DNA of 27,456 nt from a virus (taxonomy: Duplodnaviria > Caudoviricetes): the IMG/VR virus record IMGVR_UViG_3300008255_000398, positions 1 to 27,456 of that record; one strand, given 5' to 3'. This document shows positions 3,749 to 22,574 of the stretch, piece after piece. Positions within the stretch are counted from its first letter, which is position 1. Each line of letters starts with the position of its first letter. The translations under genes were made by a program, and so were the position numbers. The notes beneath the pieces are model-generated. The model did not search any database. It worked only from the letters and a program-made list of their open reading frames with translations, and had not been told where the DNA came from.

Positions 3749-3825
3749 AATTTTTTTCCCTCCAAGGTTAATATTAGAGTTTAGCACTCTATAAAAGGCC
3801 CTTGAGGCCTTCTAACAATCCTAAA

Positions 3826-4311
3826 CTATTCAATTTCAGGCTGATTTTTTCGCCCTGCTTTAACTGTCTGTGAACCATATGTATTACGTATAGTTCCCAT
3901 GTCCCACGATCCCCGACTTTTGCACACGTACCACTCGGGTTTATAGTACCAACATTGTTTGACCTTATTCCACTTCAATTTAAGGGCCTTTAGATGGTCT
4001 TTAATCGGTTTTGTATCGCCCTTAACATAGAACCACCAACCACACACTTCAATTTCAATATTGGGATATTTCAACAGCTCATTGATGATATCGGCGAAAA
4101 TGTCGGCTTCCTTATGCTGGCTTGCTGTCTTTTTCTCTGTAAAGCCTTCATTCTCTGATACTCTGTCAATGGCATCATGATATTGGTTAAGCATTATCTT
4201 AAATTCTACATCATCACCATTATTTCTATCTGGATGCAGTTCAAGAGCTAATTTTCTATATCTCTGTTTAATTTCATCAATGGTATTACAATCATAAAAA
4301 TAATTTGTCAT
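3826..4311 (-). CDS. J-domain (DnaJ-like) protein
   Basis: N-terminal EIKQRYRKLALELHPDRNNGD with an intact HPD motif. The C-terminus (GWWFYVKGDTKPIKDHLK...W) is typical of phage J-domain proteins. Confidence 0.85.
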   Translation of the reverse strand: MTNYFYDCNTIDEIKQRYRKLALELHPDRNNGDDVEFKIMLNQYHDAIDRVSENEGFTEKKTASQHKEADIFADIINELLKYPNIEIEVCGWWFYVKGDTKPIKDHLKALKLKWNKVKQCWYYKPEWYVCKSRGSWDMGTIRNTYGSQTVKAGRKNQPEIE

Positions 4312-4383
4312 AGTTTTTTCCCTCCATAGGTTTAATATTAGAGTTCAATGACTCTATAAAAGGCCCTTAAGGCCTTCTAACAA

Positions 4384-4527
4384 TCATTGAATATATAAGT
4401 CGTTCCAATCATCCTGGTCTATCCAGTTAAGACCTAAACAACTTAGTAAAATATTGTGTTGTAGCAACGTGAAGTTGATATCATTATCACACATTTCAAG
4501 TATTACCTTTTTAAATATTTCAGCCAT
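4384..4527 (-). CDS. Small hypothetical protein (47 aa), not in the ORF track
   Basis: MAEIFKKVILEMCDNDINFTLLQHNILLSCLGLNWIDQDDWNDLYIQ*. GAGGTG RBS. Overlaps the upstream stop, and its TGA lies in a hairpin repeat. Confidence 0.6.
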   Translation of the reverse strand: MAEIFKKVILEMCDNDINFTLLQHNILLSCLGLNWIDQDDWNDLYIQ

Positions 4528-4666: not shown

Positions 4667-4741
4667 GATATTCCCTCCATAGGTTTTTATTAAGAGTTTT
4701 AACACTCTATAAAAGGCCCACGTAAAGGCCTTCTAACAATG

Positions 4742-5143
4742 CTAAACAGCGACTTGACTATCTTTCCAATTATCCAATAATTGGGGAATGTATTGTTTTG
4801 ACATTAAATCAAAGCTTACAAACCATTCATTTTCAATTTTTTCGAATTTAACAGTAAAAACGGCGTGTTTCCTATTGCCACTATCATACAAACCTTCCCA
4901 AATTGCTTTTATCCAGGGGAAATCAATACCTTGACTCGATACGTCTAAATTTGTCCCACATTCACGAACAAACCAGATATATTCTCTTTCATATTCTCTG
5001 TCATGTTGCATGTTATTAAAGTTATTAGCCAGTCTTAAATAATCAATTTCAATATCATTCTTATAATATTTCACATAGCTATTAGCGGTTAATAACATTG
5101 TCTCCCTGAATTCTACTAGATTCCCATTTTCTAATTTAATCAT
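4742..5143 (-). CDS. Hypothetical protein (133 aa), first gene of the leftward array
   Basis: GGAGGG RBS. TAG stop lies in a hairpin repeat. Confidence 0.75.
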   Translation of the reverse strand: MIKLENGNLVEFRETMLLTANSYVKYYKNDIEIDYLRLANNFNNMQHDREYEREYIWFVRECGTNLDVSSQGIDFPWIKAIWEGLYDSGNRKHAVFTVKFEKIENEWFVSFDLMSKQYIPQLLDNWKDSQVAV

Positions 5144-6175
5144 AATATATTACCCTCCATAGGTTTATTTGTGTACAAAGTACACTATAGGGAGAATAAA
5201 CAAGCCAATTGGCCTCCTTATTCCCTCTTACAATACTTTGTTTTGGAGGGAGGGAAATTTTTCCAGTCGTCAATATTTTGTCTTTTTTCACTTATTGGCT
5301 ATTATCCAGTGTTAAACCTCAATGAAGGGAATAACGGATATTTTACCATCATATAGACGATTTATATTAAGTTGTCAATGTACATGAGGTCATTACTTAA
5401 AAGAGGGTTTAAACGTGTACTAAGAGGTAGTCAATTGAAGTGAGCTAAGATGTAAACCAGGTTGATAAAACTTGTATATCCAGTCAATTAGACAGATTGC
5501 CTAATTTTTGCCCATAAATGCAGGGCGTGGAGGCCGGGCGGCCTGTAAGTAATTAAGAAGTGTACTACAATTACTATATTATCATGAAAATAGTATCCGT
5601 GGGTTACAAACATATTAAGCGTTAATTACAGTTAAATTTCATAAGTTGATGTTATATACAAAATATGGAAAATGTCGGCCGTTGTTAGTTATCTAGGTAG
5701 GAAAAACAATCTTTTCAGGGTTATTTCATCAATGAGGGTTATTGAATAACATCAAAAGAAGGTAATAAAAAGAATGTTAACGATTGATATTTAAGCAGCG
5801 TTATTTTATTGATAGGATAGTTTTGATTTAATATAGTAGGGTAACTATATTGGTCTAATATTAATCTGTCTTATTTTGAGTGTTAAGGCCCTTAAAAATG
5901 ATTTCCCCTATTTTAGGGCCCTGGATGTTTTTGCGCCAAAAAGTTGAAATCTAAGCGTTATTACCAATATGTACCAGGATAATATTGGATGATAAAGATA
6001 TTTATGTTTAGATTGTGGATAACTTTGAGGATGGGTATGTGGAAAATAATGGGAAATGGCTATATATAGGCGTTTGTTGATGGCATAATATGGTATTAAT
6101 GGAAAATATTATTGCCGGGTGGACCTGAGACAATTAAAACGTAACAGTAAATGAGAAAATAGCCAATTTGTGTAA

Positions 6176-6189
6176 CAAACATATGTTCT
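6176..6189. promoter_or_regulatory. LexA (Cheo) box, one mismatch
   Basis: CAAACATATGTTCT versus the Gram-positive consensus CGAAC-N4-GTTCG. Confidence 0.45.
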
Positions 6190-6223
6190 ATGCAGATAGA
6201 TAGCTGATTACCGGACGTAACAC

Positions 6224-6237
6224 CGAACAAACGTTTG
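6224..6237. promoter_or_regulatory. LexA (Cheo) box
   Basis: CGAACAAACGTTTG. Confidence 0.5.
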
Positions 6238-6580
6238 TTACAGAGATTTGATGATGTCAATATATGGATAGTATGGAATAATTTTCTGTCATTGTGATGA
6301 TAAGACTTACAGAGATATGGAATATTATGGATAAATTTAAGTATTGAAGTTATTGTAAATGATGTAATATATTCCCATGGAGAATGATTGCATAAATGGA
6401 TAAATTTGGGCGTACTGTTAAAAGATGGATAATCCATGACATATATGGGAAATACTAGGAGAATATTGATGACAATATATGGAAAATGACTAGATAATAT
6501 TGGAAAATGATGAGTAAATATGTTTAAGTATGGATATACTCACGTTTATTTCCTGTTACTAGGAGATTTGAAACGCTCTA

Positions 6581-6604
6581 AGAGAGAGAGAGAGAGAGAG
6601 AGAG
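6581..6604. repeat. (AG)12 microsatellite
   Basis: Read directly from the sequence. Confidence 0.9.
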
Positions 6605-7031
6605 GTAACAGACAGTAAATATATATAAGCTATATATTTTTTGTTCTTGCTTTTTTCTTTGCTGGAAATTGTTTTTAAAAAGCCGCAAAAATTACCAAAA
6701 TATATGAGGTATGTAAATATATTGAAGTTATGGTATATGTATACATGACTATGGTATGAACTGGAAATTATTGATATATGGAAGATGATATTTTGTAGAA
6801 AAGGTATATATATTCCCTGGATATAACTGGAAACGTTAGGGAAATGTTTGGATAGGGTGAAATTATACAAGCCTCTAGGGTAGTACTGTTACTGTTACGG
6901 AGTGAGTTTTTCTCCTGTGATAGAGTGGTGTTGAGTATGGGACAGTATTGCTGACCTTATGTTACTTACGTTTGTTGGTAGAATATGGAAGGCTTGAAAG
7001 GGTTTGAGGGAGAGAGTTACAGGGATGGGGG

Positions 7032-7045
7032 CGAACATATGTTCT
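7032..7045. promoter_or_regulatory. LexA (Cheo) box
   Basis: CGAACATATGTTCT. Confidence 0.65.
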
Positions 7046-8070
7046 CGGAACAGTGACTCGATCCCTCTGTTACTTGATGATGGAAGAAATGGGAAATAGT
7101 TCCATGTGAGGTGGGAGGATGGATAATAGTGTGTCGAAATGTGTAGGTTATGTGGATAATGATGGGAATTGGTAATTGTCGAAAAGTGAGCTGGGAATGG
7201 AAGAAAATGGTAAATAAGCGTGTCACGCTCCCAATTTATGGATGAATCGCTTATATATAAATAAATTTATCCCATAAATGGAAAATAAACACATATTTGT
7301 GAGGTCGAAAAAGGCGTTGTCAGTTTAACTGACGTGTCAGTTTAACTATATACTGGAAATTGTTTTATTCAAACTAATTGACACTGGTAAATACTAGGAG
7401 AAATAAGGCGTTTTTCGTTGACATGTGAATCATATTGATGGATATATTATACAGTAGAATAAACATAATATTTTGAGCGTGTCCAAAGTATCATTAAACC
7501 ACTGTTAAATATTTAACAATGTCATTAAGCTCTGATTACCAGATGGATATAAAAAAGTGAATAAATCCGGAAAAACACAAACAAAACACTACATTTGTCC
7601 ATAATTATGTTTATATATCCAGATAATTTCCAGAAATGGATAATGGGTATGGAATAGATTGGAAATTATGGGAATTGTTACGGTGTTTTTGCTATCGTCT
7701 AATTGAACAAAATAAACATTTTGTATAATTAGAATTCAGATACCCCTATATTACTATGTTATAGCTGGTAATATCCATAATATGGTAATTGTCGAATTGG
7801 GATAATAGTGATGTTATTACCATGTATTAGTATGTATGGTAGTATATGGTATGCATGATATATATTTATATGAAATAGCACAACAAAATAATTATTGTTT
7901 TTGTGTGAATTTCGTGGTATTATGGGCGTGACAGCAGGCCATATCTTAACGTTATTACCATATACTGGAAGACACCCGGAGTACCCACCACCCGGAACAT
8001 CCGTTCCCACGTACCAGGGACCTGGTTTGATCATTCCCCAAATAATTTTTCCCCAAGTACAAATAAAACA

Positions 8071-8088
8071 GGCGAACACGTGTTCGCC
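8071..8088. promoter_or_regulatory. Perfect LexA (Cheo) box upstream of the rightward genes
   Basis: 18-bp palindrome GGCGAACACGTGTTCGCC about 60 bp before ATG 8147. Confidence 0.7.
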
Positions 8089-8146
8089 GGAAATGAGGAT
8101 GCATGAGTAACAGTAAAACAGATTTACCACCAGAGGGAGGTACTAT

Positions 8147-8677
8147 ATGAATATCGACAATAAAGCTGGCGAAGTCAGCTTACTTAATCTACATACAATG
8201 GTAAAGAACATCACAAGAGTATTACGGTTATCAGAGAAATCTACACAGCGTATCATCACAGGGTTAATGCGAACATTTTTCCAGGATTTAGTAAATTCAT
8301 CCTGTGAGGGATTAGATAGTTACAGTGAAATTTCTAACAATGAGGACACGCATAAGCTTATTGCAGCTAATTATCTTAAGAATTGCAGTGGAGCGGTTCT
8401 GGGATTCGACCTGGAAGAAATTGGTGTAGATGTAGATCATAGCGTAAGACTTTACCCAGAGAAATTTTATCTCCAGGAATTTCACGCACAGTTAATGTAC
8501 GTAATAGGGGAATATCTGGAAAAAGACGAACAATTACAGATCGAAGAAGAGGGTTGCGGTGGAGCAACGAGCAAAGATGATAATGGGATGTCCTTTGCAT
8601 TTAAGTTAGCATGTGGATGCCTAAGTGAGTTACAGTATATTACTAAAGTTCACCTAGATAGTAAAAAAGGAAAGTAA
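8147..8677 (+). CDS. Hypothetical protein (176 aa)
   Basis: GGGAGGT RBS and protein-like composition. Confidence 0.75.
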   Translation: MNIDNKAGEVSLLNLHTMVKNITRVLRLSEKSTQRIITGLMRTFFQDLVNSSCEGLDSYSEISNNEDTHKLIAANYLKNCSGAVLGFDLEEIGVDVDHSVRLYPEKFYLQEFHAQLMYVIGEYLEKDEQLQIEEEGCGGATSKDDNGMSFAFKLACGCLSELQYITKVHLDSKKGK

Positions 8678-8835
8678 CTGCATTTGCTTTCAAGCGCAAC
8701 TAATAATACTTGAGATGCAAGAGGCAGTTACATGACTTTCTTCATCCAAGAAAAGATATCTAAGAGGAGATAAAGCATGGTGGAAATTTCATTCTTTACC
8801 ACCCGCTTTTAATCTTTTGATCTTTTAAGAAGGAG

Positions 8836-9093
8836 GTGGAAAATATGATAGTTGATGATCTGCCAAGGTCAGAGGATGATTTTGACAAGCCAGAACTTAA
8901 GGACGAGGATGTTTTTGACATTAACATTAATGAGAAGGAGAACGACAAGTATATTAATTTTGAGCCTACAGGAGGGGAACCTGTATGTCCAGCATGTGGA
9001 TTTATGTTAAATAGTGAGAATGAGATATGGTGTCCATTTTGTGGGTACAATGTACTGTTAGATTATGAATGTGAGGAGGATATTGATTTATGA
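8836..9093 (+). CDS. Acidic Zn-ribbon protein
   Basis: CPACG...CPFCG. AGGAGG RBS (start may be ATG 8845). ATGA overlap with the next gene. Confidence 0.7.
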   Translation: MENMIVDDLPRSEDDFDKPELKDEDVFDININEKENDKYINFEPTGGEPVCPACGFMLNSENEIWCPFCGYNVLLDYECEEDIDL

Positions 9094-9425
9094 AGGACAT
9101 GGGATTTGAAACAATATTAGAAAGGGCACAGAAAGAAAAAACGAAAGCTTTGGTATTTACTGGAAACAAGAAATATTCTTATTTTATTGACAGATTATTG
9201 GAATTAGGAGAGGTTAGGAGAGAGAAGCCTAATCGTTATGTTTTGCCAAATGGATCATGGATACAAATTGCAGTTAACGTTAAGACTTTGCCTGAAACTT
9301 ATAACTATGCTGGATATGAAGTTGACGCAATATATATTGATGAAATAACTGATATGGACCATCAAGCATTGGAATATTTAAGTACATTAATAAGGTCATC
9401 TGGAGGTGAAGCGAAAGATGAATAA
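9090..9425 (+). CDS. Truncated terminase-ATPase-like protein (Walker B region only)
   Basis: LPNGSWIQI...YAGYEVDAIYIDEITDM...EYLSTLIRS aligns with TerL FPNGARIKL...YQGQEYDVIGFEEATGF...QFVSTCLRS. No Walker A motif. Confidence 0.65.
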   Translation: MKDMGFETILERAQKEKTKALVFTGNKKYSYFIDRLLELGEVRREKPNRYVLPNGSWIQIAVNVKTLPETYNYAGYEVDAIYIDEITDMDHQALEYLSTLIRSSGGEAKDE

Positions 9426-10665
9426 GGTTGTAAAGGTCCAAGTATTCACTGAGAACAAAGAGATATACAAGATCATACATGAACTTATGTTTGAAACTAG
9501 AAAGTTACAGAATAAGGCCATTTGTGCGATGTATGAGTGGTCCGACTTTAAGTTTGAATATAAGGATAAGCATGGGACATATCCGAAGCCTTATGAAATC
9601 CTGGAGAAGAAAAAAGGAGATGGCGAAGAGTTTTACAAAACTGTGGGTGGGTATATTGATATGCACACCAGGGAACTTTTCTATAAGAATATTTCCAACA
9701 ATTCAAGCTCAGCTATAATGGAAGCTATGAAGCTTTTTAAGGCTAAAGAGAAGGACATGCAAAAGTGCTTATGTACATTGCCATTTTACCGCCAGAGCAA
9801 TAAAATAAACCTGCATAAACAGGTTATGAATATGTTTAAAAATGATGGGAAATATTTTATTGATGTTGGACTTATTTCTCAGAAATATAAAAGAGAATTA
9901 GAATTAACATCTGGACGATTTTTATTAACCATGTGTATCAATGATAACAGCCAGAAAACTATAGTTAATAGAATACTAAACGGTGAATATAGCTTATGTG
10001 AGAGTGAGCTGAGGTATGTAAAACGGCTTAAGAAGTTCTTTATATACCTTACATATGGATTTGACCAGGTCCAATTTAAGACCGGTAATAATGTTTTGGG
10101 TGTAGACATAGGAATCAAGTATCCTGTCTACATAGCTCTAAAAGACAGTTTGAAGCGTTGGCATGTGAGTGGTGACGAGATTGGAGCCTTTAGAAAACAG
10201 GTAGAAAAAAGGCGATATGCTAAGAGAAAGCAAAGGCTTGTATGTGGTGACGCAAGCCGCAAACATGGGCGTGGTAGACATTTGAAGCCTGTTACAGATA
10301 TTGGAGATAAAGTCGCTAGATTTAAAGATCGGATCAATCACAAATATAGTAGTTTTATAATTGATATTGCAAAAAAGAATAATGTTGCTATAATAAAGAT
10401 GGAAGATTTGACCGGGATAAATGATGATGTCAAATTTCTTAAAAACTGGCCCTATTATGACCTACAAAGTAAGATTAAATATAAAGCCGAGGCGGTAGGC
10501 ATAGTAGTTGAATTGGTAAATCCTGCATTTGACACTAAAGAGTGTAGCAAGTGCGGTCATATAGAATCAGGAAACATAAAGCCACAAGAGACATTTAGAT
10601 GTGAATCTTGTGGATTCGAAGCTCAAAAGAACTACAATTCGGCATTAGTTATAGCCAACAGATAA
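9418..10665 (+). CDS. cas12f: Cas12f/TnpB-family RNA-guided protein (415 aa), probably nuclease-inactive
   Basis: RuvC-I VLGVDIG, RuvC-II IKMEDL, NWPYYDLQSKIKYKA, Zn finger CSKC...CESC. RuvC-III reads QKNYNSALVIA instead of NADxNAAxNIA. GGAGGTG RBS before ATG 9418. Confidence 0.85.
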   Translation: MNKVVKVQVFTENKEIYKIIHELMFETRKLQNKAICAMYEWSDFKFEYKDKHGTYPKPYEILEKKKGDGEEFYKTVGGYIDMHTRELFYKNISNNSSSAIMEAMKLFKAKEKDMQKCLCTLPFYRQSNKINLHKQVMNMFKNDGKYFIDVGLISQKYKRELELTSGRFLLTMCINDNSQKTIVNRILNGEYSLCESELRYVKRLKKFFIYLTYGFDQVQFKTGNNVLGVDIGIKYPVYIALKDSLKRWHVSGDEIGAFRKQVEKRRYAKRKQRLVCGDASRKHGRGRHLKPVTDIGDKVARFKDRINHKYSSFIIDIAKKNNVAIIKMEDLTGINDDVKFLKNWPYYDLQSKIKYKAEAVGIVVELVNPAFDTKECSKCGHIESGNIKPQETFRCESCGFEAQKNYNSALVIANR

Positions 10666-10674
10666 GCAGTTTAC

Positions 10675-10792
10675 GGGCTGACTTGACAGCCTTAAAGCGA
10701 GACAGGGGTTCGCCCCTGTACTCTGCTAAGTCGTGATTACGCCGACATCCCAGGTGTGTGCCTGGCAATTAATATAAAAAACTGTTTTGAAG
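10675..10792 (+). ncRNA. tracrRNA/omegaRNA-like scaffold, copy A
   Basis: Starts 10 nt after the cas12f stop. Stems GGCTG/CAGCC, ACAGGGG-TTCG-CCCCTGT, GTCG/CGAC and CCAGG/CCTGG. Homologous to 18796-18913 with compensatory changes. Confidence 0.75.
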
Positions 10793-12558
10793 ATGGTATT
10801 ATAATTGGCGAATTGAAGAGTTTATAAAGTATTTGAGTTGAAGTAAATGGTGGGCATGATAATGTTTGAAGTAAATGTAAAGAATGATAATGTTTGAAGT
10901 ATGATCATATAATGAGCTAAGGTTTGAAGATAGGAAAACATATAATAAAGTTTTAAGCGGTGGAATATTTGAAGAAATACATTATCGGTTGAAGATAGTG
11001 TGGTAGTTGTTTGAAGAAGTGAGTGAGATAGAGGGAAAGTTTGAAGCGATAGAGGGAAATTTTGAAGATAGGTAATTAATTGATATTATGTTTGAAGTAT
11101 ATAGTAAGATGATAATGTTTGAAGTATATTAGTAAACTTAAAGAACTTGAAGAATAATCTTGCATTTGAAGATGTGTTATTGAAGAAGATGTGTTATTGA
11201 AGAATTTTATATTTTGAAGATATGAAGCTTTATATTATTGAAGATATGGAACTAATAATAATTGTTGAAGAGGTTTGTGGGAGTTAATTGGAGATTTGAA
11301 GATTTATTTAGAAGATTATATAAATTATCTAATGTTGAAGATGGGATAAAGCATGTAAAATTTGAAGAGAAGAAAATTATGAGATATTGAAGGTTGAAGT
11401 TTAAGTTTATAATGCATTAGGCAATGTTGAAGTTGAAGGTTTGGATGATGTCTTTATTGAAGAATGTAAGTATCCCATTTGTTGAAATTGAAGGATATGT
11501 CTATTGTTTATTATTGAAGATGTAAGTATGGTATGGTGATATTGAAGGCTATATAGTGTAGTTGAAGAAGGAAATTAGAATATGCTTTATTGAAGTTTAA
11601 ATACATTTATGTCTGTTGAAGGCTATTGAAGAAAGAAAAGATGTTGTTTCTGATTAATTGAAAGTAAGCTAATATAGTGTGTTGAAGAAGGAGAAATATT
11701 GAAGAAACCTAATAAGACAGTTGAAGAAATGGATATTGAAGAAACTAATGGCATTACAATATGTTGAAGAAATAATTTGAAGATGATATGTATAAGCAGA
11801 ATTGAAGATAGTTGTCTAAGGTATGTTGAAGAGAGTATATGTTGAAGATAGGTATATTGAAGTAATAAAGAGAGATTATAGTTGAAGAAAATGTTTAAGC
11901 TATATATTGAAGATTGTTAAGGATTGATTGGATTGAAGATGGAATTTGATTGAAGTATAATGAGTGTAATTGAAGGATTAAATAAATGTAAATTGAAGTA
12001 AGATACTATTTATAAGTTGAAGATACAAATTATTATTTACTATTGAAGATATTATTTGGAATTATTGAAGAATGGGAAGTATTGAAGATATTTATTGAAG
12101 AATGTTATGTTTTATCTAGTTGAAGATAGAATTGAAGAATGTATTGTTTTATGAAGTTGAAGAATATGTATACCCTCTATAGTTGAAGATTGCTATTATA
12201 AAATAATTGAAGAAAATATATTATACACCCAAATTGAAGACCCAAAAATTGAAGGCAAATATATATGATTGAAGAATGTGCAATGTTATTGAAGGATAGA
12301 ATAATTGAAGAGTATAGTTAATATTAATTGAAGTTTATGCTAAGAGATGATTGAAGAGAATGAAATGATTGAAGAAGATAAAATTTACTGATGATTGAAG
12401 GTTAAGATTTATATTTTATTGAAGAGATATAATAATAGTATTTAGTTGAAGATTAAAAATGTGTTATATTGAAGAGAATGAAAATAATAATAGTATTTGA
12501 TTGAAGAAGAGCAATGATTGAAGAGATAGTACTAATTGAAGAAGGTTTATAATTGAAG
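10787..12558 (+). CRISPR. Non-canonical array of about 77 TTGAAG hexamers with variable spacers (mean period about 23 nt)
   Basis: Manual count of 77 exact copies on the + strand, and I saw none on the - strand. No ORF. Bounded by the scaffold RNA and a terminator. The repeat itself is certain, while the CRISPR role is inferred. Confidence 0.65.
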
Positions 12559-12601
12559 GAAAAAGGATGATGTGTTTGGCCTGCCTATGTCAGGTCTTTA
12601 T

Positions 12602-12652
12602 TTATGCAAAAAAGTCTGTACTCAGAGCGGAGTACAGGCTTTTTATGCATAA
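12602..12652. terminator. Bidirectional intrinsic terminator closing the array
   Basis: TTATGCAAAAAAGTCTGTACTC-AGAGCG-GAGTACAGGCTTTTTATGCATAA inverted repeat with A/T tracts. Confidence 0.8.
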
Positions 12653-16320: not shown

Positions 16321-17205
16321 ATGAATACCCAGTTAATATTGATAGATGAATTAGAAAATAGATTTTTATTGAAGAACAAAGATATAGATATAGTTTTTGA
16401 TATGAATAAAGCTGATGTAGCATATGTTACATTTAGTAAAATAGATTTTTCAACATACCCAAATATAAAACATGTATTATGTCCATGTACTAACACGAAA
16501 CATATCACAGTAAATAAGACTCAGACACTACACTACTTAGATGATGCCGCATGGTTAGGCTCAAATGTAAGGTCCACTGTAGAGTGGACTATTTGGGCTA
16601 TAATGAATTTGTTAAAAAGTGATCATAACAACAGGCCTAATGAAATATTTGGAAAGACTGTGGGCATTATTGGTATGGGCAGGATAGGTCAAAAAGTAGC
16701 TAGAATACTTAGATCACTTGGATGTCATCTCATTTATCACGATCCATATGTTGAACAATGCGGTGGAATTCTTAATATATCTTTAGAAAGAATTATGAAA
16801 TATTCTCAAATTATCACTGTTCATGCAGTGAGTAATGAATCTACATTTAAACTAATTTCAGAAGAACAATTTAATCAGGTTAGGCATAGACCATATTTTA
16901 TTAACTGTTCAAGAGGAGCAGTAGTCAGTGGTAAAGCTTTATGGAATTGTTACACCAGGAACAAACTAAAAGGATTTGCTATTGATGTGATTGATACTTA
17001 TGATCCAGAAACTATTGCTAGTATTAGACATGAATCGCTAATTAGTAATAGGGTTATATTTACAGATCATAAGGCTGGAAGTAGTATTGAAAGTAGAATT
17101 GCAACAGATAGCTATGTTATTGACAAATATATCACAACTAGGGGACAGCAAAATGGAGAAGACGAAAATAATAGTAGAATGCTGCAACAATCATCTCGGA
17201 CTTGA
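16321..17205 (+). CDS. D-2-hydroxyacid dehydrogenase family NAD-binding protein
   Basis: GKTVGIIGMGRIG, FINCSRGAVV, AIDV and TDHKAG. Confidence 0.88.
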   Translation: MNTQLILIDELENRFLLKNKDIDIVFDMNKADVAYVTFSKIDFSTYPNIKHVLCPCTNTKHITVNKTQTLHYLDDAAWLGSNVRSTVEWTIWAIMNLLKSDHNNRPNEIFGKTVGIIGMGRIGQKVARILRSLGCHLIYHDPYVEQCGGILNISLERIMKYSQIITVHAVSNESTFKLISEEQFNQVRHRPYFINCSRGAVVSGKALWNCYTRNKLKGFAIDVIDTYDPETIASIRHESLISNRVIFTDHKAGSSIESRIATDSYVIDKYITTRGQQNGEDENNSRMLQQSSRT

Positions 17206-17923
17206 TGAAGTTCGAATGAAGATGATTGAAGAGGCAGCAAAAGCAGGAGCGACTTATGTAAAATGGCAGCTTTATAATTCCGATTTTATCAATGAAGAAT
17301 ATCCTAATTATGAAGTTGTAAAAATGAACATGAAAAGATGTGAACTTACGCCATTAGCAGTAAGTAACATCATGAGGAAATCTCAGGATATGAATGTTAT
17401 CCCGATGTTTACCATCTTTAATATTGACAGGCTTGCATTATTGCAGGGATGGCCGCCTACTGCTATGGCTGTTAAGATAGCAAGCCCGGACCTATTGAAT
17501 TATTCTTTAGTAAATGCAGTAAGGTCCAAATTTAAAGATTCAGAAATGTTCATTAGTGCTGGTATGCACAATGAAGAAGAGATTGAAAACGCTAGATATA
17601 GGTATAGTGATTTAAAACTTAAATGGTTGTATTGTGTTTCGAAATATCCAGCACATAAAGAAGATATATCATACATTGATATGAGAAGCTTTGACGGATT
17701 TTCAGACCATACAGAAGGCATCGATTGCGCTTGTCTAGCAATAGATATTAATCAGCCAACGTATATTGAAAAGCATTTTACATTGTCTAAGTTACTTCCT
17801 GGGAAAGACCAGGAAATTAGTATTGATCCGGAAGAACTTAAAAGGTTAGTAGTTCATTCTGGATATCATATTAATAACTACAATTATAAAAGGAGATTTA
17901 AAGAAATTGGAATATCTAGTTGA
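17153..17923 (+). CDS. neuB: N-acetylneuraminate/nonulosonate synthase family (NeuB), no C-terminal AFL domain
   Basis: ECCNNHLG, VKWQ, KIASPD, ISAGM, YCVSKYP, GFSDHT, IEKHFTL. Confidence 0.9.
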   Translation: MEKTKIIVECCNNHLGLDEVRMKMIEEAAKAGATYVKWQLYNSDFINEEYPNYEVVKMNMKRCELTPLAVSNIMRKSQDMNVIPMFTIFNIDRLALLQGWPPTAMAVKIASPDLLNYSLVNAVRSKFKDSEMFISAGMHNEEEIENARYRYSDLKLKWLYCVSKYPAHKEDISYIDMRSFDGFSDHTEGIDCACLAIDINQPTYIEKHFTLSKLLPGKDQEISIDPEELKRLVVHSGYHINNYNYKRRFKEIGISS

Positions 17924-18776
17924 AGAGAGAAGTTGTCCTATTTGTAATAAGTATGATTCGTCAGTAATGTGGAAGAAAAGCCCTTTGACAAAATATAGTA
18001 AGACTATAATGGATTATGAAGATATGATTCATGGCGAAAATCATATATGTCACATATGTGGGATGGTATATGAAAAGTATCCAATGATTTCTTCCTGCCT
18101 GGATGAATTTTATCAAAAGGATGAAGAAAAAGGGATAAGTCCTTACCGTGAAATCTATTCGTATACTATGAATAGCATATACCTTCATTTTGCGCATACT
18201 GTGCAATATTGCAAAGAGGTATTAAAGAAAGAAAACTTTGGTGATTGGTTAGACATTGGAAGTGGTGATCCATGGATAACTAAAGAAATGCAAAAATATG
18301 GTTCTGGATGGAGTTGGGACCCTGGATTTGATCACACAAGAAATTTCAAGAGCGATCCAAGAAGTAGATTTGACTTGGTCACATGTATGAACATGCTTGA
18401 ACATGTCTATGCTCCTATAGAGTTTTTACAAAACATGCATCCACTGGTTTCTAACTTTGGTAACCTTATTCTATGTGTACCATATGTGTACACTAATAGT
18501 ATTACTATGCATAAAGACCAATGGTTTAGTAACGCTCATATACATCATTTTGACATTAATTCTTTAGATAATACCTGCTTATTAGCAGGATGGAAGATTG
18601 ATAGTGTTCAATTGCTTTATGAAGAGATGGGACAGAAGATATATGTTAGATGTAAGAAAATTAGGCCTAAACAGCCTGTATTTAATTTTAATAAAGAAAA
18701 AGTTAGCAGAGCAAAAGATTTTATCTCACTTCAAAATCAAGTTTGGCTGGCTGGAAATGATATGAAGGTAGTTTAA
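17907..18776 (+). CDS. Class I SAM-dependent methyltransferase with N-terminal Zn finger
   Basis: CPIC...CHICG, WLDIGSG, FDLVTCMNMLEHV, HIHHF. TTG start after AGGAG. Confidence 0.85.
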   Translation: MEYLVEERSCPICNKYDSSVMWKKSPLTKYSKTIMDYEDMIHGENHICHICGMVYEKYPMISSCLDEFYQKDEEKGISPYREIYSYTMNSIYLHFAHTVQYCKEVLKKENFGDWLDIGSGDPWITKEMQKYGSGWSWDPGFDHTRNFKSDPRSRFDLVTCMNMLEHVYAPIEFLQNMHPLVSNFGNLILCVPYVYTNSITMHKDQWFSNAHIHHFDINSLDNTCLLAGWKIDSVQLLYEEMGQKIYVRCKKIRPKQPVFNFNKEKVSRAKDFISLQNQVWLAGNDMKVV

Positions 18777-18795
18777 TGGGTGATGAATGGTAATA

Positions 18796-18913
18796 GGTTA
18801 ACTCGATAACCTTAAGGCGAGGCTGGAAAAATTTATTCTTGCACTCTGCCAAGCCGTGAGTATACCGGCATCCCAGGCGTGTGCCTGGCAAATTTAATAT
18901 ATGTTAAGACTAG
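18796..18913 (+). ncRNA. tracrRNA-like scaffold, copy B, with anti-repeat
   Basis: Aligns with 10676-10776. The 3' segment AATATATGTTAAGACTAG (18896-18913) is imperfectly complementary to the adjacent repeats, including G-U pairs. Confidence 0.75.
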
Positions 18914-18924
18914 TGTTTGTGCTG

Positions 18925-19085
18925 GTTTAGTACTAACATGTGTTGACTTGGAGGCTGGATGTTACAAAACTTAATAACATAATATCCAGGTTTAGTACTA
19001 ACATGTGTTTTGTTGGAGGATGCTGCTTACTGCACCAATTAAATATAATCCTGGCAGTTTAGTACTAACATATGTTTAGTTGGAG
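18925..19085 (+). CRISPR. Mini CRISPR array: three 29-nt repeats and two spacers (36 and 38 nt)
   Basis: GTTTAGTACTAACATRTGTTnnnTTGGAG at 18925-18953, 18990-19018 and 19057-19085. Confidence 0.88.
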
Positions 19086-19163
19086 CTAGAAGATTTACAC
19101 CAAATTTGGAGAGTTGAAGCTAAAGTAAATAGACATTTTAATAACATTATAAGGAGCGACAGT

Positions 19164-20384
19164 ATGAATAAACAATTTAAGAAAGACAGAACAGGAAAGT
19201 ATGTATTAGAGAGCAATATAAAACCACCAGAAGGTCCAGAAATAGCGGAAGTATCTGCTATACCTAAAGGTGAGCTATGTGTAAAGGTAGAGGATATATC
19301 TGATATATCGTTACCAGAAGAAGTGCTAAAAGTAAAAAAGGCTGATAAGCTTGCCATTGTTGGGTTTGCTCCTAGCTGGAACTTAGCTCCTTTTGATGAT
19401 AAAGAGTTTGATGTTTGGGGAATTAACGAATTATATGTCTTGGCAGTAAATAAAAGGTTTACAGGTTGGTTTGAAATTCATGATCCTTGGTCACCTTCCA
19501 GGAACAATGCGAATCATCACAATTTTTTAAAAACCTGTACTATCCCTTTATTTATGCAGAGACATTATGGCGAATTCCCCAATAGTCTTGAATTCCCACG
19601 TAAACAGGTCAAAAACTTTTTTAACCAGAATATTATTATTGGCAATGTTGGATCATACTACACAGATTATAGTAACCAAATAACCTGGATGAATGGTCTT
19701 GCTATAATGCTCGGATATAAAGAAATTCATGTGTATGGCGTTGATATGGCTCAATCGAGTGAATATGCTTGGCAAAGAGCAGCATGTCAATTTATGATAG
19801 GCTATGCCCTTGGAGCTGGAATCAAAGTGCTTATCCCTAAAAATAGTGAGTTATGCAAATATCCTCGTGACTATGGTTGGGAAACAGACAATTATCAAAG
19901 GAACTTGAAGAAACAAAGAATCAAGGATGTTGGAAATAGAATTCAGCATATCGAGAATGCAATCATTGAACAGGATTATTATAAAGATGCTTTTGCAACT
20001 GAAAACAAGAGAGCTAATGACGATTATAACAATAAAATCAATCAGCTTAAATTAAGGGTTGTGAAACTTCAAACCATGCTTGAGAAGAATTCTGATATTA
20101 ACAGGATTATAACTACTATGCCTAAAGATATGAAAGAGCTTGAAACAAAGACACCTGAAATTCTTGGCAAGGTAGCTAAAGAAAATGAAACTGTTGAGGC
20201 AGAATTGAAGGCTTTAGAACAGGATATAACTGCTCTTAGGACTGAAAGAGAGCAAGTCAACAAGCAACATTTTATCCAGATGCAAATATTGGACCTTAAC
20301 AAAAAGAATCATACTACATCAAAAAGCTTACATCAGGGTTGTCTTGATGAATGCAAACATGATTTAGCAAATAACTTAGTGTGA
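19164..20384 (+). CDS. Putative nonulosonate/sialyl-transferase-like (Maf/DUF115-type fold) protein with C-terminal coiled coil
   Basis: LAIVGFAPS, VWGINE and AIMLGYKEIHVYGVDM motifs. ATG 19164 follows AGGAG, whereas the TTG at 19080 lies inside a CRISPR repeat. Confidence 0.6.
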   Translation: MNKQFKKDRTGKYVLESNIKPPEGPEIAEVSAIPKGELCVKVEDISDISLPEEVLKVKKADKLAIVGFAPSWNLAPFDDKEFDVWGINELYVLAVNKRFTGWFEIHDPWSPSRNNANHHNFLKTCTIPLFMQRHYGEFPNSLEFPRKQVKNFFNQNIIIGNVGSYYTDYSNQITWMNGLAIMLGYKEIHVYGVDMAQSSEYAWQRAACQFMIGYALGAGIKVLIPKNSELCKYPRDYGWETDNYQRNLKKQRIKDVGNRIQHIENAIIEQDYYKDAFATENKRANDDYNNKINQLKLRVVKLQTMLEKNSDINRIITTMPKDMKELETKTPEILGKVAKENETVEAELKALEQDITALRTEREQVNKQHFIQMQILDLNKKNHTTSKSLHQGCLDECKHDLANNLV

Positions 20385-20391
20385 GGTTGAT

Positions 20392-21123
20392 ATGAATAGA
20401 TTACAGGGATTAATGTTGGGATTTGGAGATATTGGAACAGCAGTGCATAGCTTGTTTAAACATGTAATTAACTTTGAGATTATTGATCCAAAAAGAAAGA
20501 TGGTTGCAAAAATTGATAGGACCAGATATGACATTATAGTTGTAACTTATCCTTATCATGATGGTTTTATTGAAGAAATAAATGACCTGGCTATTAAGTA
20601 TTCAGCTTTTGACATAATGATATTTTCTACTTTGCCAATTGGGATCACTAAACAAATTACTGGAGCTGTACATATCCCAGTAGAGGGAAAGCATCCAGGA
20701 CTTGACAGGTATATAAGAAGCTGGAGATTATTTATAGGGCATAATGGCAATATTAGCGAAAAAATAATGCATTGTTTAAATAACATTGGCAACAACTACA
20801 CATTGGTAAGAGATTCTAATGTGACAGAAGCATTGAAGCTTTTATCAACAACTTGCTATGGTATTAACATTGAGTTTGCAAGGCTTGTTGGTGAAGTATT
20901 CCAGACATTGAGAAGCGATTATTCTTTGTGGAATGAATATACCTCAGCATATAATCTCCTGTATTCTAATACCAATGAGTTCAAGAGTATTAAGAGATAT
21001 AATCTTTATGCGCCTAGAGGTCCTATTGGTGGACACTGTATAGTATCTAATGCAAAATTATTAGGGAAATCGTTTAAATCACCTATTATCGACATTGTGA
21101 AAGGGGAACAATATGAGTCTTAA
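20392..21123 (+). CDS. UDP-glucose/GDP-mannose dehydrogenase family protein, short form
   Basis: GFGDIG Rossmann motif, FSTLPIG, EALKLLSTT..GINIEFA and catalytic IGGHCI. Confidence 0.8.
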   Translation: MNRLQGLMLGFGDIGTAVHSLFKHVINFEIIDPKRKMVAKIDRTRYDIIVVTYPYHDGFIEEINDLAIKYSAFDIMIFSTLPIGITKQITGAVHIPVEGKHPGLDRYIRSWRLFIGHNGNISEKIMHCLNNIGNNYTLVRDSNVTEALKLLSTTCYGINIEFARLVGEVFQTLRSDYSLWNEYTSAYNLLYSNTNEFKSIKRYNLYAPRGPIGGHCIVSNAKLLGKSFKSPIIDIVKGEQYES

Positions 21124-21925
21124 AGATATAAAGGAAAGATCAGAGGTAGTTATCATTGGAACTGGGAGGTATGAAGAGGAGCTTCCTTATGCATTTGATT
21201 TAAACAAAACAGATGTGTGGGCGTTAGGTCCTAGTGCTTTTAAAGCTTATGATAATAATGAACCATTTTCATATAACTGTTTATTTGAGATACATAATAA
21301 AAAGTATTCTCCATACTTTAGAAATGAAATTTACCAGGAATTCTTGAAGAAAAATCCTGTTAAAAAGATTATGCAGAAAGAAAGCTATACTTATCCTTTA
21401 TCAGAAGCATACCCACTTGAGGAGATAATAGAAGAGTTTGGAACTAAATTCTTTATATGTTCTCTCTCATATGCTATAGCATTAGCCATACATATGAAAT
21501 ATGAGAAGATAGTTCTAAGAGGTATTAACATGATCATGACTGATGATTTAATACAAAAAAATGGTGTTGAGTTTTGGTTGGGAATTGCTGAAGGAAGAGG
21601 AATAAAAGTTGAAACTTCTTCAGTATGTGATTTATTGAAATGTGGTAAAATGTATGCATATGAATGTGATAATACATTAGCTGTGTATCAGCAAAGATAC
21701 ATGAATACTATCATAAGAGAGATAGCAAGATATCTGCAAAGAAACCATGAATTCCACACAACTATGGCTGAAATTTCTTCAAGTGTTACTGACATGTTTA
21801 ATATGCTTACTACTGAAAGAGTTGGCTTCATGAGACAGATACTTGAAAGACATGAAATAAACTATAGAAATGAGGATGATGAAAATGAGAATTGTTGCTC
21901 TAGTACCTGCAAGGAAGGGCAGTGA
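21113..21925 (+). CDS. Paralog of 19164-20384 (putative glycosyltransferase)
   Basis: VVIIGTG, DVWAL, LFEIH, YPL, AIALAIHMKYEKIVLRGINM and FWLGIAEGRGIKV all align with the paralog. Confidence 0.6.
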   Translation: MSLKDIKERSEVVIIGTGRYEEELPYAFDLNKTDVWALGPSAFKAYDNNEPFSYNCLFEIHNKKYSPYFRNEIYQEFLKKNPVKKIMQKESYTYPLSEAYPLEEIIEEFGTKFFICSLSYAIALAIHMKYEKIVLRGINMIMTDDLIQKNGVEFWLGIAEGRGIKVETSSVCDLLKCGKMYAYECDNTLAVYQQRYMNTIIREIARYLQRNHEFHTTMAEISSSVTDMFNMLTTERVGFMRQILERHEINYRNEDDENENCCSSTCKEGQ

Positions 21926-22574
21926 AAGGGTACCTAATAAGTCTATGATGAGGCTTGTTGGTAAACCATTATTATTCTACACCATTGATGCCGCTGTGGA
22001 CTCTACTCTAATAGAAGATATTTACATAAGCACTGACTATACACCAACTGTACTTAAGCAATGTCTTAAGAGGAAAAAGACACACTATGTAAGAAGGCCT
22101 GACGAAATGTGTACTAGTAGTTCACCAGCAATAGATTATATAAGACACTTTATTGATGTTGCTGATTTAAGTCAGGACGACATAATTGTTCTTTTGCAGC
22201 CTACATCTCCTTTAAGAACTGGTATAGACATAACTAATGCAATAGAAGCGTATAAAAATACGGATAAGGAAACATTAGTCAGTGTTGTTAAATTTCCTAC
22301 TATAAAGCAGTTTTATTATTCTGATGGATCACCAATGGAGATCGGTGAGTATTTGAGATTAGAGCAGTCTAACCAAACTGTATATAAGAGGAATGGTAGT
22401 ATCTATATATTTAATGTCAGATTCTTTAAAGAGCGAAATGATATATTTGGACACAGCCCATATCTTTTCGAGATGGATTCATTCAAAGCAGACGATATTG
22501 ACGATATGAAAGACTTTAAGAAAATTGAAGCTTTTGTTAAAGGGGGAGGGTTTAAGCTTTGGAAATCTTTTTAG
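21885..22574 (+). CDS. neuA: Acylneuraminate cytidylyltransferase (CMP-nonulosonate synthetase)
   Basis: VPARKGSERVPNK, GKPL, STD, RP, LLQPTSPLR, NGSIY, DIDD. Confidence 0.92.
   Translation: MRIVALVPARKGSERVPNKSMMRLVGKPLLFYTIDAAVDSTLIEDIYISTDYTPTVLKQCLKRKKTHYVRRPDEMCTSSSPAIDYIRHFIDVADLSQDDIIVLLQPTSPLRTGIDITNAIEAYKNTDKETLVSVVKFPTIKQFYYSDGSPMEIGEYLRLEQSNQTVYKRNGSIYIFNVRFFKERNDIFGHSPYLFEMDSFKADDIDDMKDFKKIEAFVKGGGFKLWKSF

Follow-up and report, generated by a model that had tools for sequence, protein, structure and literature searches.

What use could a phage have for a CRISPR-associated nuclease that appears unable to cut, and why is its gene followed by a long run of one short repeated word? 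The stretch of DNA analysed here (the window) is a virus record of 27,456 bases, which also carries genes for terminase, portal, amidase and sugar modification. The data sets listed as containing the locus are metagenomes of aquifers, groundwater and wetlands, with no RNA data set among them; four were compared with the window. No Rfam match was obtained for the window and no tRNA was found in it. The reading preferred here, to which a probability of about 60% is given, is that a type V-F1 CRISPR-Cas12f system captured by the phage became a non-cutting, multi-guide DNA binder. As judged from sequence, the parts of the protein that bind RNA and DNA are retained and the loss of cleavage residues is local, and the array repeat is reduced to seven or so bases predicted to pair with a tracrRNA, RTTG facing its anti-repeat and AAG its stem-1 loop. 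The gene and the residues concerned are as follows.

9418 to 10665, + strand: cas12f gene, AsCas12f1-like (type V-F1, former V-U3), 415 aa (sequence, Foldseek, PADLOC)
10105 to 10107, + strand: RuvC-I Asp230, intact (GVDIG; AsCas12f1 D225) (alignment)
10402 to 10404, + strand: RuvC-II Glu329, intact (MEDL; AsCas12f1 E324) (alignment)
10528 to 10539, + strand: YTSQ changed to FDTK (AsCas12f1 T368-S369-Q370 read D-T-K) (alignment)
10576 to 10578, + strand: Ile387 in place of a conserved Arg (AsCas12f1 R383; NR reads NI) (alignment)
10630 to 10632, + strand: Asn405 in place of the RuvC-III Asp (AsCas12f1 D401; ANADYNAARNI reads AQKNYNSALVI) (alignment)

The cas12f frame is open from an ATG at 9418, with GGAGG upstream, and its start overlaps the stop of the preceding ORF. 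Both sequence and fold are those of a type V-F1 Cas12f: the AsCas12f1 structures are the closest solved ones on either count (272-276 bits, 36% identity), the AlphaFold2 model (mean pLDDT 85) reaches a Foldseek TM of about 0.70 to AsCas12f1 chains, and PADLOC calls the ORF Cas12f with 335 bits. Residue equivalents were taken from alignment to AsCas12f1 structures (7WJU numbering) and to 33 relatives. This alignment bore out what the initial annotation had read from the letters, namely the changes of D to N, NR to NI and YTSQ to FDTK, the retention of all four zinc cysteines (C376, C379, C395, C398) in an intact ORF, and the intact RuvC-I Asp and RuvC-II Glu, both of which lie just upstream of the interval 10420 to 10665 that it had marked. 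The RuvC-III helix is present; the intact D-E-D triad and zinc-finger Arg of type V-F1 enzymes are not found, N405 and I387 standing in their place.

The altered columns are strongly conserved. Among 239 homologues in which all three catalytic columns were aligned (of 242 fetched), D405 is kept in 232, R387 in 215 and T372 in 222, and the Asp372 of the window protein occurs in no other. The TS pair and the Arg are retained in 199 of 209 proteins with D-E-D, as against 6 of the 30 without it. A contig from another study (run X2) spans 10351-10726 with 0 differences. Because of this conservation and of the identical contig, the substitutions are not due to chance and are unlikely to be an assembly error.

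AsCas12f1 no longer cleaves when D225, E324, R383 or D401 is replaced by alanine, and S369A reduces its cleavage (10.1101/2023.07.03.547593); the equivalents of two of these four essential residues, R383 and D401, are altered here. The earlier proposal of a nuclease-dead protein is likely to be right, but the D-to-N change is not decisive: the Fanzor GtFz1 cleaves with a natural D-E-N triad (PMC11423790), so that D-to-N alone is no proof of death. SpuFz1 D606N is even more active, and the equivalent change did not raise the activity of Cas12 or TnpB (PMC11423790). In the alignments, the stronger evidence for nuclease loss is that the R383 equivalent is gone together with TSQ, and cleavage of double-stranded DNA has probably been lost. 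A rearranged site (D230-E329-N405, perhaps helped by Asp372) that still cuts or nicks, with the array as a compact weapon against rival elements, is improbable. It would draw on the GtFz1 precedent (PMC11423790), on the two catalytic carboxylates and four cysteines that are retained and on the uniqueness of Asp372. The Arg whose replacement abolishes AsCas12f1 cleavage (10.1101/2023.07.03.547593) is Ile here, however, the D-to-N exchange brought no gain in Cas12 or TnpB (PMC11423790), the TSQ and Arg changes resemble those of two relatives that also lost a catalytic Asp (P0008 and P0011), and many units of the array are too short for a 20-nt guide.

The position of the damage was examined in an alignment of 34 proteins, in which departures were scored at columns conserved to 85% or more. 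There was 1 departure in 19 columns of WED/REC and 3 in 46 of RuvC I-II, that is 4 in 65 before the last 50 residues, as against 9 in 23 within them. In 18 of the 33 relatives the last 50 residues show no departure; P0008 and P0011, whose RuvC-I Asp is lost, come nearest, with six each. Against the relatives L030 and L031, dN/dS is 0.11-0.12 in RuvC I-II with synonymous sites near saturation, the remaining two regions (WED/REC and the last 50 residues) being too saturated for it, and these values do not date the inactivation. Since the damage is local to the last 50 residues, it points to targeted nuclease loss and not to decay. A tree of 39 proteins places the window protein beside the intact L030/L031 group as its sister (support 100/100), and the four labelled altered proteins require four separate changes in it. 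As a side observation, L004 (6001-7450), P0005, P0008 and P0011 represent three further, separately derived active-site changes in the clade; L004 has just two full repeats and one spacer and is a candidate single-target regulator.

If the protein binds DNA without cutting it, its guides should be sought in the RNA elements of the window, which are listed here.

10675 to 10786, + strand: tracrRNA 1, four hairpins, 112 nt (homology, covariation)
10787 to 12558, + strand: minimal-handle array, 77 TTGAAG (consensus R-TTGAAG-A) (motif count)
12578 to 12596, + strand, and 12616 to 12637, called on the - strand: two terminator-like hairpins closing the array (hairpin prediction)
18790 to 18923, + strand: tracrRNA 2, no adjacent cas gene, stem-1 loop ACTCGA, full-length anti-repeat (homology)
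18925 to 19085, + strand: canonical mini-array, three 29-nt repeats ending TTGGAG, two spacers (repeat search)

TracrRNA 1 begins right after the cas12f stop codon and is homologous to elements behind related genes and to the copy at 18790-18923. In an alignment of eight copies, 93% of cells pair, compared with 33-42% in slid controls, and double changes occur in 13 of 22 pairs; the structure was derived from the same alignment, which favours its pairing score. The stem-1 loop reads ACTTGA, of which CTT (10682-10684) pairs with the AAG of the handle, and the shortened anti-repeat begins with CAAT at 10766 (CAAC in L031) and pairs with RTTG. Of the 77 handles, 61 are preceded by a purine (p 4e-4) and 54 are followed by A; the purine at -1 fits the U that replaces C in the anti-repeat of tracrRNA 1.

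The loop contact could be followed through the clade. By a strict rule, the stem-1 hairpin was found in 10 of 17 loci examined; in these ten loci and the two window copies, loop bases 2-4 were scored by script as complementary to the last three bases of the repeat in 11 of 12 cases, where repeat ends were set by hand, mostly by counting 29 from the 5' G. In the twelfth case, L034, the repeat ends in GAG and matches its loop on inspection. Four loop:repeat triplet types occur (CTT:AAG, CTC:GAG, TTC:GAA and TTT:AAA), and the two window tracrRNAs follow their own arrays, CTT going with AAG and CTC with GAG. None of 20,000 permutations, which ignored kinship, reached 11 matches. By this comparison, pairing between the loop and the repeat end covaries across the clade, and the window has what is expected of type V-F1 here, a tracrRNA with an anti-repeat and a stem-1 loop that pairs to the repeat end. 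In AsCas12f1, the repeat:anti-repeat duplex stacked on stem 1 is the core and only the distal duplex is dispensable (10.1101/2023.07.03.547593); the pairing that the phage appears to have kept is roughly this stacked core. A scan of viral sequence with the tracrRNA pattern gave 0 matches. In six distant members (L006, L008, L013, L036, L045 and L115), weak matches to the tracrRNA model lie upstream of cas12f, which suggests a second tracrRNA position there.

The handle array is sharply defined. TTGAAG occurs 77 times in its 1,772 bases, as against 25 times on the rest of the + strand and 0 times on the array's - strand, with few near-misses. The same word forms the 3' end of the 29-nt repeat in L030/L031, whose proteins are 72% identical to the window protein and have an intact active site, and whose loop is the same. 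The canonical array of repeats of about 29 nt that adjoins the gene in type V-F1 is thus absent, handles of 6-7 nt taking its place. Unit length has a median of 24 nt; 54 of 76 units measure at least 20 nt and 22 are shorter, some with 0-4 nt between handles. The spacers average 17 nt, contain 4.7% C as against 17% in the canonical spacers of L031, and fold weakly (-0.109 vs -0.186 kcal/nt). Their composition best fits the phage's own non-coding DNA on the + strand, which neutral filler could equally give. Most are unique; near neighbours share 8-mers in 3.7% of 297 near pairs as against 1.3% in shuffles, and Tandem Repeats Finder reported only short local duplications. Extended -10 boxes are found in spacers 8 times against 2.5 (p 0.006 before correction for 14 patterns). 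The idea that the spacers are eroded copies of the old repeat was rejected (score 14.32 vs 14.34 shuffled). The suggestion of a multiplexed binder with short spacers is thus supported by the tracrRNA and the handle array.

Apart from the strain described below, no second handle-array locus was found, the window's own record being the only one among those listed of 123 loci. Viral scans for four TTGAAG and four TTGGAG returned 9 and 7 loci, none with a Cas12f match (the four-TTGAAG pattern does recover the window), and 14 phage loci found by their terminase had no Cas12f within the stretches examined.

Pieces of the phage, or of a diverged strain of it, were found in other samples. Runs X2 and X3 hold near-identical pieces, with 0-1 difference in those listed, and X1 may be the source of the window. 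Run X7 differs from the window at 96 of 2,291 bases (4.2%) over seven coding pieces; at the listed places 33 codons are changed, 23 of them silently. One X7 contig, over 10609-10981, has 0 listed changes in the 112-nt tracrRNA or in the handles and 2 in 103 spacer bases, together with an exact deletion of a 30-nt unit; 6 of its 9 differences are listed, so that the N codon is not readable there. In a second X7 contig, 202 nt are replaced by 33 nt holding one handle, and an 11-nt insertion restores a handle inside the window's 39-nt unit. On this array evidence, which consists of single contigs at depth 2-3.6, tracrRNA and handles are preserved in the X7 strain, and its differences from the window are of whole units.

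These data bear on two further explanations. According to the first, the locus is a decaying relic, in which the nuclease died, the array eroded and was expanded by slippage, and nothing is selected now. Such a history would fit the likeness of neighbouring spacers above chance, the local tandem duplications, the confinement to a single lineage and the four separate origins of active-site damage among the 39 proteins. It is nevertheless unlikely in view of the 77 exact handles with few near-misses, the low dN/dS of an ORF that has stayed open, the lack of listed changes in the X7 tracrRNA (P about 0.009 if it changed as fast as the genes) and the failure to trace the spacers to the old repeat. 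According to the second, the handles matter and the spacers do not: the array would be an RNA decoy or scaffold that, alone or with the dead protein, sequesters the tracrRNA or Cas12f of a rival element with TTGAAG at the end of its repeats. Sister systems whose repeats have this ending do sit on FtsK/integrase elements, the spacers are C-poor, weakly folding and without targets found, and viral repeat-like RNAs have been discussed as inhibitors (10.1101/2023.03.03.530964). A decoy is likewise not very probable, for the phage still carries the cognate tracrRNA, the lobe that recognizes DNA is conserved and most spacers are unique; the 2 listed changes in 103 X7 spacer bases lie below the rough synonymous rate of 12%, though in one low-depth contig and not below the overall 4.2% (p 0.2).

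With a non-cutting, multi-guide binder as the preferred reading, gene, tracrRNA and array would be co-transcribed up to the terminators at about 12600, and the scaffold would pair with any handle. This pairing would probably be helped by placement on the same RNA (in cis), because 7 bp are weak in trans. The 14-20 nt after the handle would act as guide, and a Cas12f dimer would sit on matching DNA and block transcription, with rival elements or genes of the host as the likeliest targets. Units would change by duplication, deletion and recombination, not by Cas1-Cas2 capture; no cas1 or cas2 match was found among the 27 window proteins scanned. A more specific version can be put forward only tentatively, and is rather doubtful: a natural RNA with one scaffold and many guides, in which a single unprocessed transcript lets the tracrRNA loop in cis to any of 77 seven-base handles, made accessible by removal of cytosine, with guides diversified by slippage and recombination without Cas1-Cas2, so that dead Cas12f represses many genes at once.

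What the guides would recognize was sought in several ways. Exact matches of at least 10 nt anchored at the 5' end of the guide number 9 in the window against 11.7 in shuffles, and offsets 0-2, with or without a TTR PAM, gave nothing convincing there; offset 2 yielded 22 matches against 12.6 at 10 nt, which are not PAM-linked and in part run through the handle. The PAM assumed in these tests, TTR, may not be the right one. The PAM-reading residues of AsCas12f1, H72, Y76 and K96 (10.1101/2023.07.03.547593), read G, D and M both in the window protein and in its intact sister, and the PAM is therefore probably not TTR. Among cultured phages, 41 records matched in short pieces, of which the best 20 cover at most 4% of the query at E 0.01 or worse, and five related phage records gave only short AT-rich matches to spacers. 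No robust match of a guide to a promoter or gene beside a PAM was obtained in the window or the related phages; the silencing of host genes or of the phage's own, also proposed in the initial annotation, thus found no robust target signal in the window.

One region stands out in the near-matches (15 nt, at most 2 mismatches), with 7 on the + strand of 8147-10660 against 1.2 expected; over the whole scan, p is below 1/90 with this setting and 0.04 with one other. The excess could mean that the dead complex is an autoregulator, which represses the operon that encodes it or sets the timing of the switch to the downstream packaging genes. Held in two of five settings, it is not significant in the other three, however; the region was chosen after the fact, and several mismatches fall within the first guide bases. 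Autoregulation is accordingly a very improbable explanation. A further match concerns the intact sister, in which spacer 11 of L031 matches the sibling FtsK/integrase element L030 (1399-1434) at 32 of 36 positions. The ancestor therefore probably served in conflict between mobile elements, and this sister targeting also speaks for the reading in which the window enzyme still cuts. The flank of the L030 protospacer ends in CCAG, which is the only PAM hint for the clade and comes from one diverged protospacer.

The canonical mini-array, with its own tracrRNA, stands 8 kb from the cas12f gene. In runs X2 and X3 it has one more spacer, of 36 nt; this difference between samples, with no other effector in the window, is again in favour of an enzyme that cuts. 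X1 contigs break at the repeat of this array, and its spacer 1 had no exact viral match.

Several known systems resemble the locus in part. AsCas12f1 (7WJU, 8DZJ, 8J12; 10.1101/2023.07.03.547593) shares the fold, RuvC-I/II, the CCCC zinc finger and a tracrRNA of four stems that has two repeat:anti-repeat segments, of which one stacks on stem 1, whereas in the phage D401 and R383 are changed, the repeat is reduced from 29 to about 7 nt and spacers are about 17 nt long. The phage "dCas14" is likewise a phage Cas12f without a catalytic residue, and was interpreted as a repressor (Al-Shayeb et al. 2020, PMC7162821). In that system a host gene is matched by one spacer, in contrast to 77 minimal handles with no target found here, and the passages of that paper on the system mention no reduced repeats. 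As far as these passages go, a phage dead Cas12f repressor was thus already proposed in 2020 (PMC7162821), and the handle array is the new part. Truncated repeat-spacer units of Cas12k (Hsieh and Peters, 10.1101/2021.02.06.429022) also combine a non-cutting type V effector, a repeat cut to its tracrRNA-pairing part, a 17-nt spacer and a neighbouring canonical array. They differ in having a handle of about 13 nt, one unit per element and a role in transposon homing, as against 77 tandem handles of 6-7 nt. The window array shares with them the repeat reduced to its tracrRNA-pairing part and the short spacer; its effector is Cas12f, not a Cas12k with TnsB/TnsC/TniQ, and neither these proteins nor a transposase were found among the window proteins scanned.

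Non-cutting Cas12f is also known as dCas12f-sigmaE and CRISPR-adjacent dCas12f (Hoffmann et al. 2026, PMC13472631), and guides of 14-16 nt suffice for DNA binding by other dCas12f (PMC13472631). Those described there differ in C-terminal truncations that remove part of RuvC, single guides that are self-contained and need no tracrRNA and, in most cases, a sigma partner (PMC13472631). The window protein is distant from them (46 bits to 9N9C vs 275 to AsCas12f1), one tracrRNA serves many handles and the RuvC-III helix is retained. A Pfam scan of 27 window proteins showed no linked sigmaE and HTH genes: no sigma factor matched, and the one weak HTH match is the small terminase.

TldRs are RNA-guided repressors with a dead RuvC, some of them phage-borne, which are derived from TnpB and have one omega RNA. 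They have neither tracrRNA nor array; the window protein, instead of having a TnpB origin and an omega RNA, is nested among Cas12f systems with tracrRNA and array. The likeness to TldR and dead Cas12f drawn in the first reading hence holds for function only, given the tracrRNA and the lack of a sigma factor among the window proteins. TIGR arrays (10.64898/2026.09.09.750476) and phage Cas12r (10.64898/2026.04.20.719267) are other systems. No paper on tandem 6-7-nt handle arrays for Cas12f was found in a literature search that reached few subscription papers.

The array suggests that a CRISPR repeat may shrink to 6-7 bases and still be read; at this length, arrays would be hidden from repeat finders. 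It would also show how some 75 guides can be packed in nature into 1.8 kb behind a single promoter. Because an intact, 72%-identical sister exists and a canonical array is present in the same genome, the transition from an immune nuclease to a regulator lends itself to tests by direct exchange of parts.

Some minor observations concern the remainder of the window. A 111-aa ORF at 9090-9425, which overlaps the cas12f start, has a weak match to part of the large terminase family, and an atlas search with the ORF at 8147-8677 gave no usable lead. The stretch at 5400-8100 is long and without a convincing gene; it is G-skewed, rich in the words TATGG and TGGATA and contains an (AG)12 run, and is possibly an origin or a further RNA region. 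An intergenic element of 44-51 nt, with a hairpin containing GGCC, occurs four times in the left-arm genes (2859-2936, 3786-3829, 4318-4394 and 4671-4748). A sugar-modification cluster (NeuB, two cytidylyltransferases, a dehydrogenase and a methyltransferase) lies among the packaging genes at 1419-2096 and 16321-22574, and in the relative L001 sugar-pathway-like ORFs, read by eye, follow the array as well.
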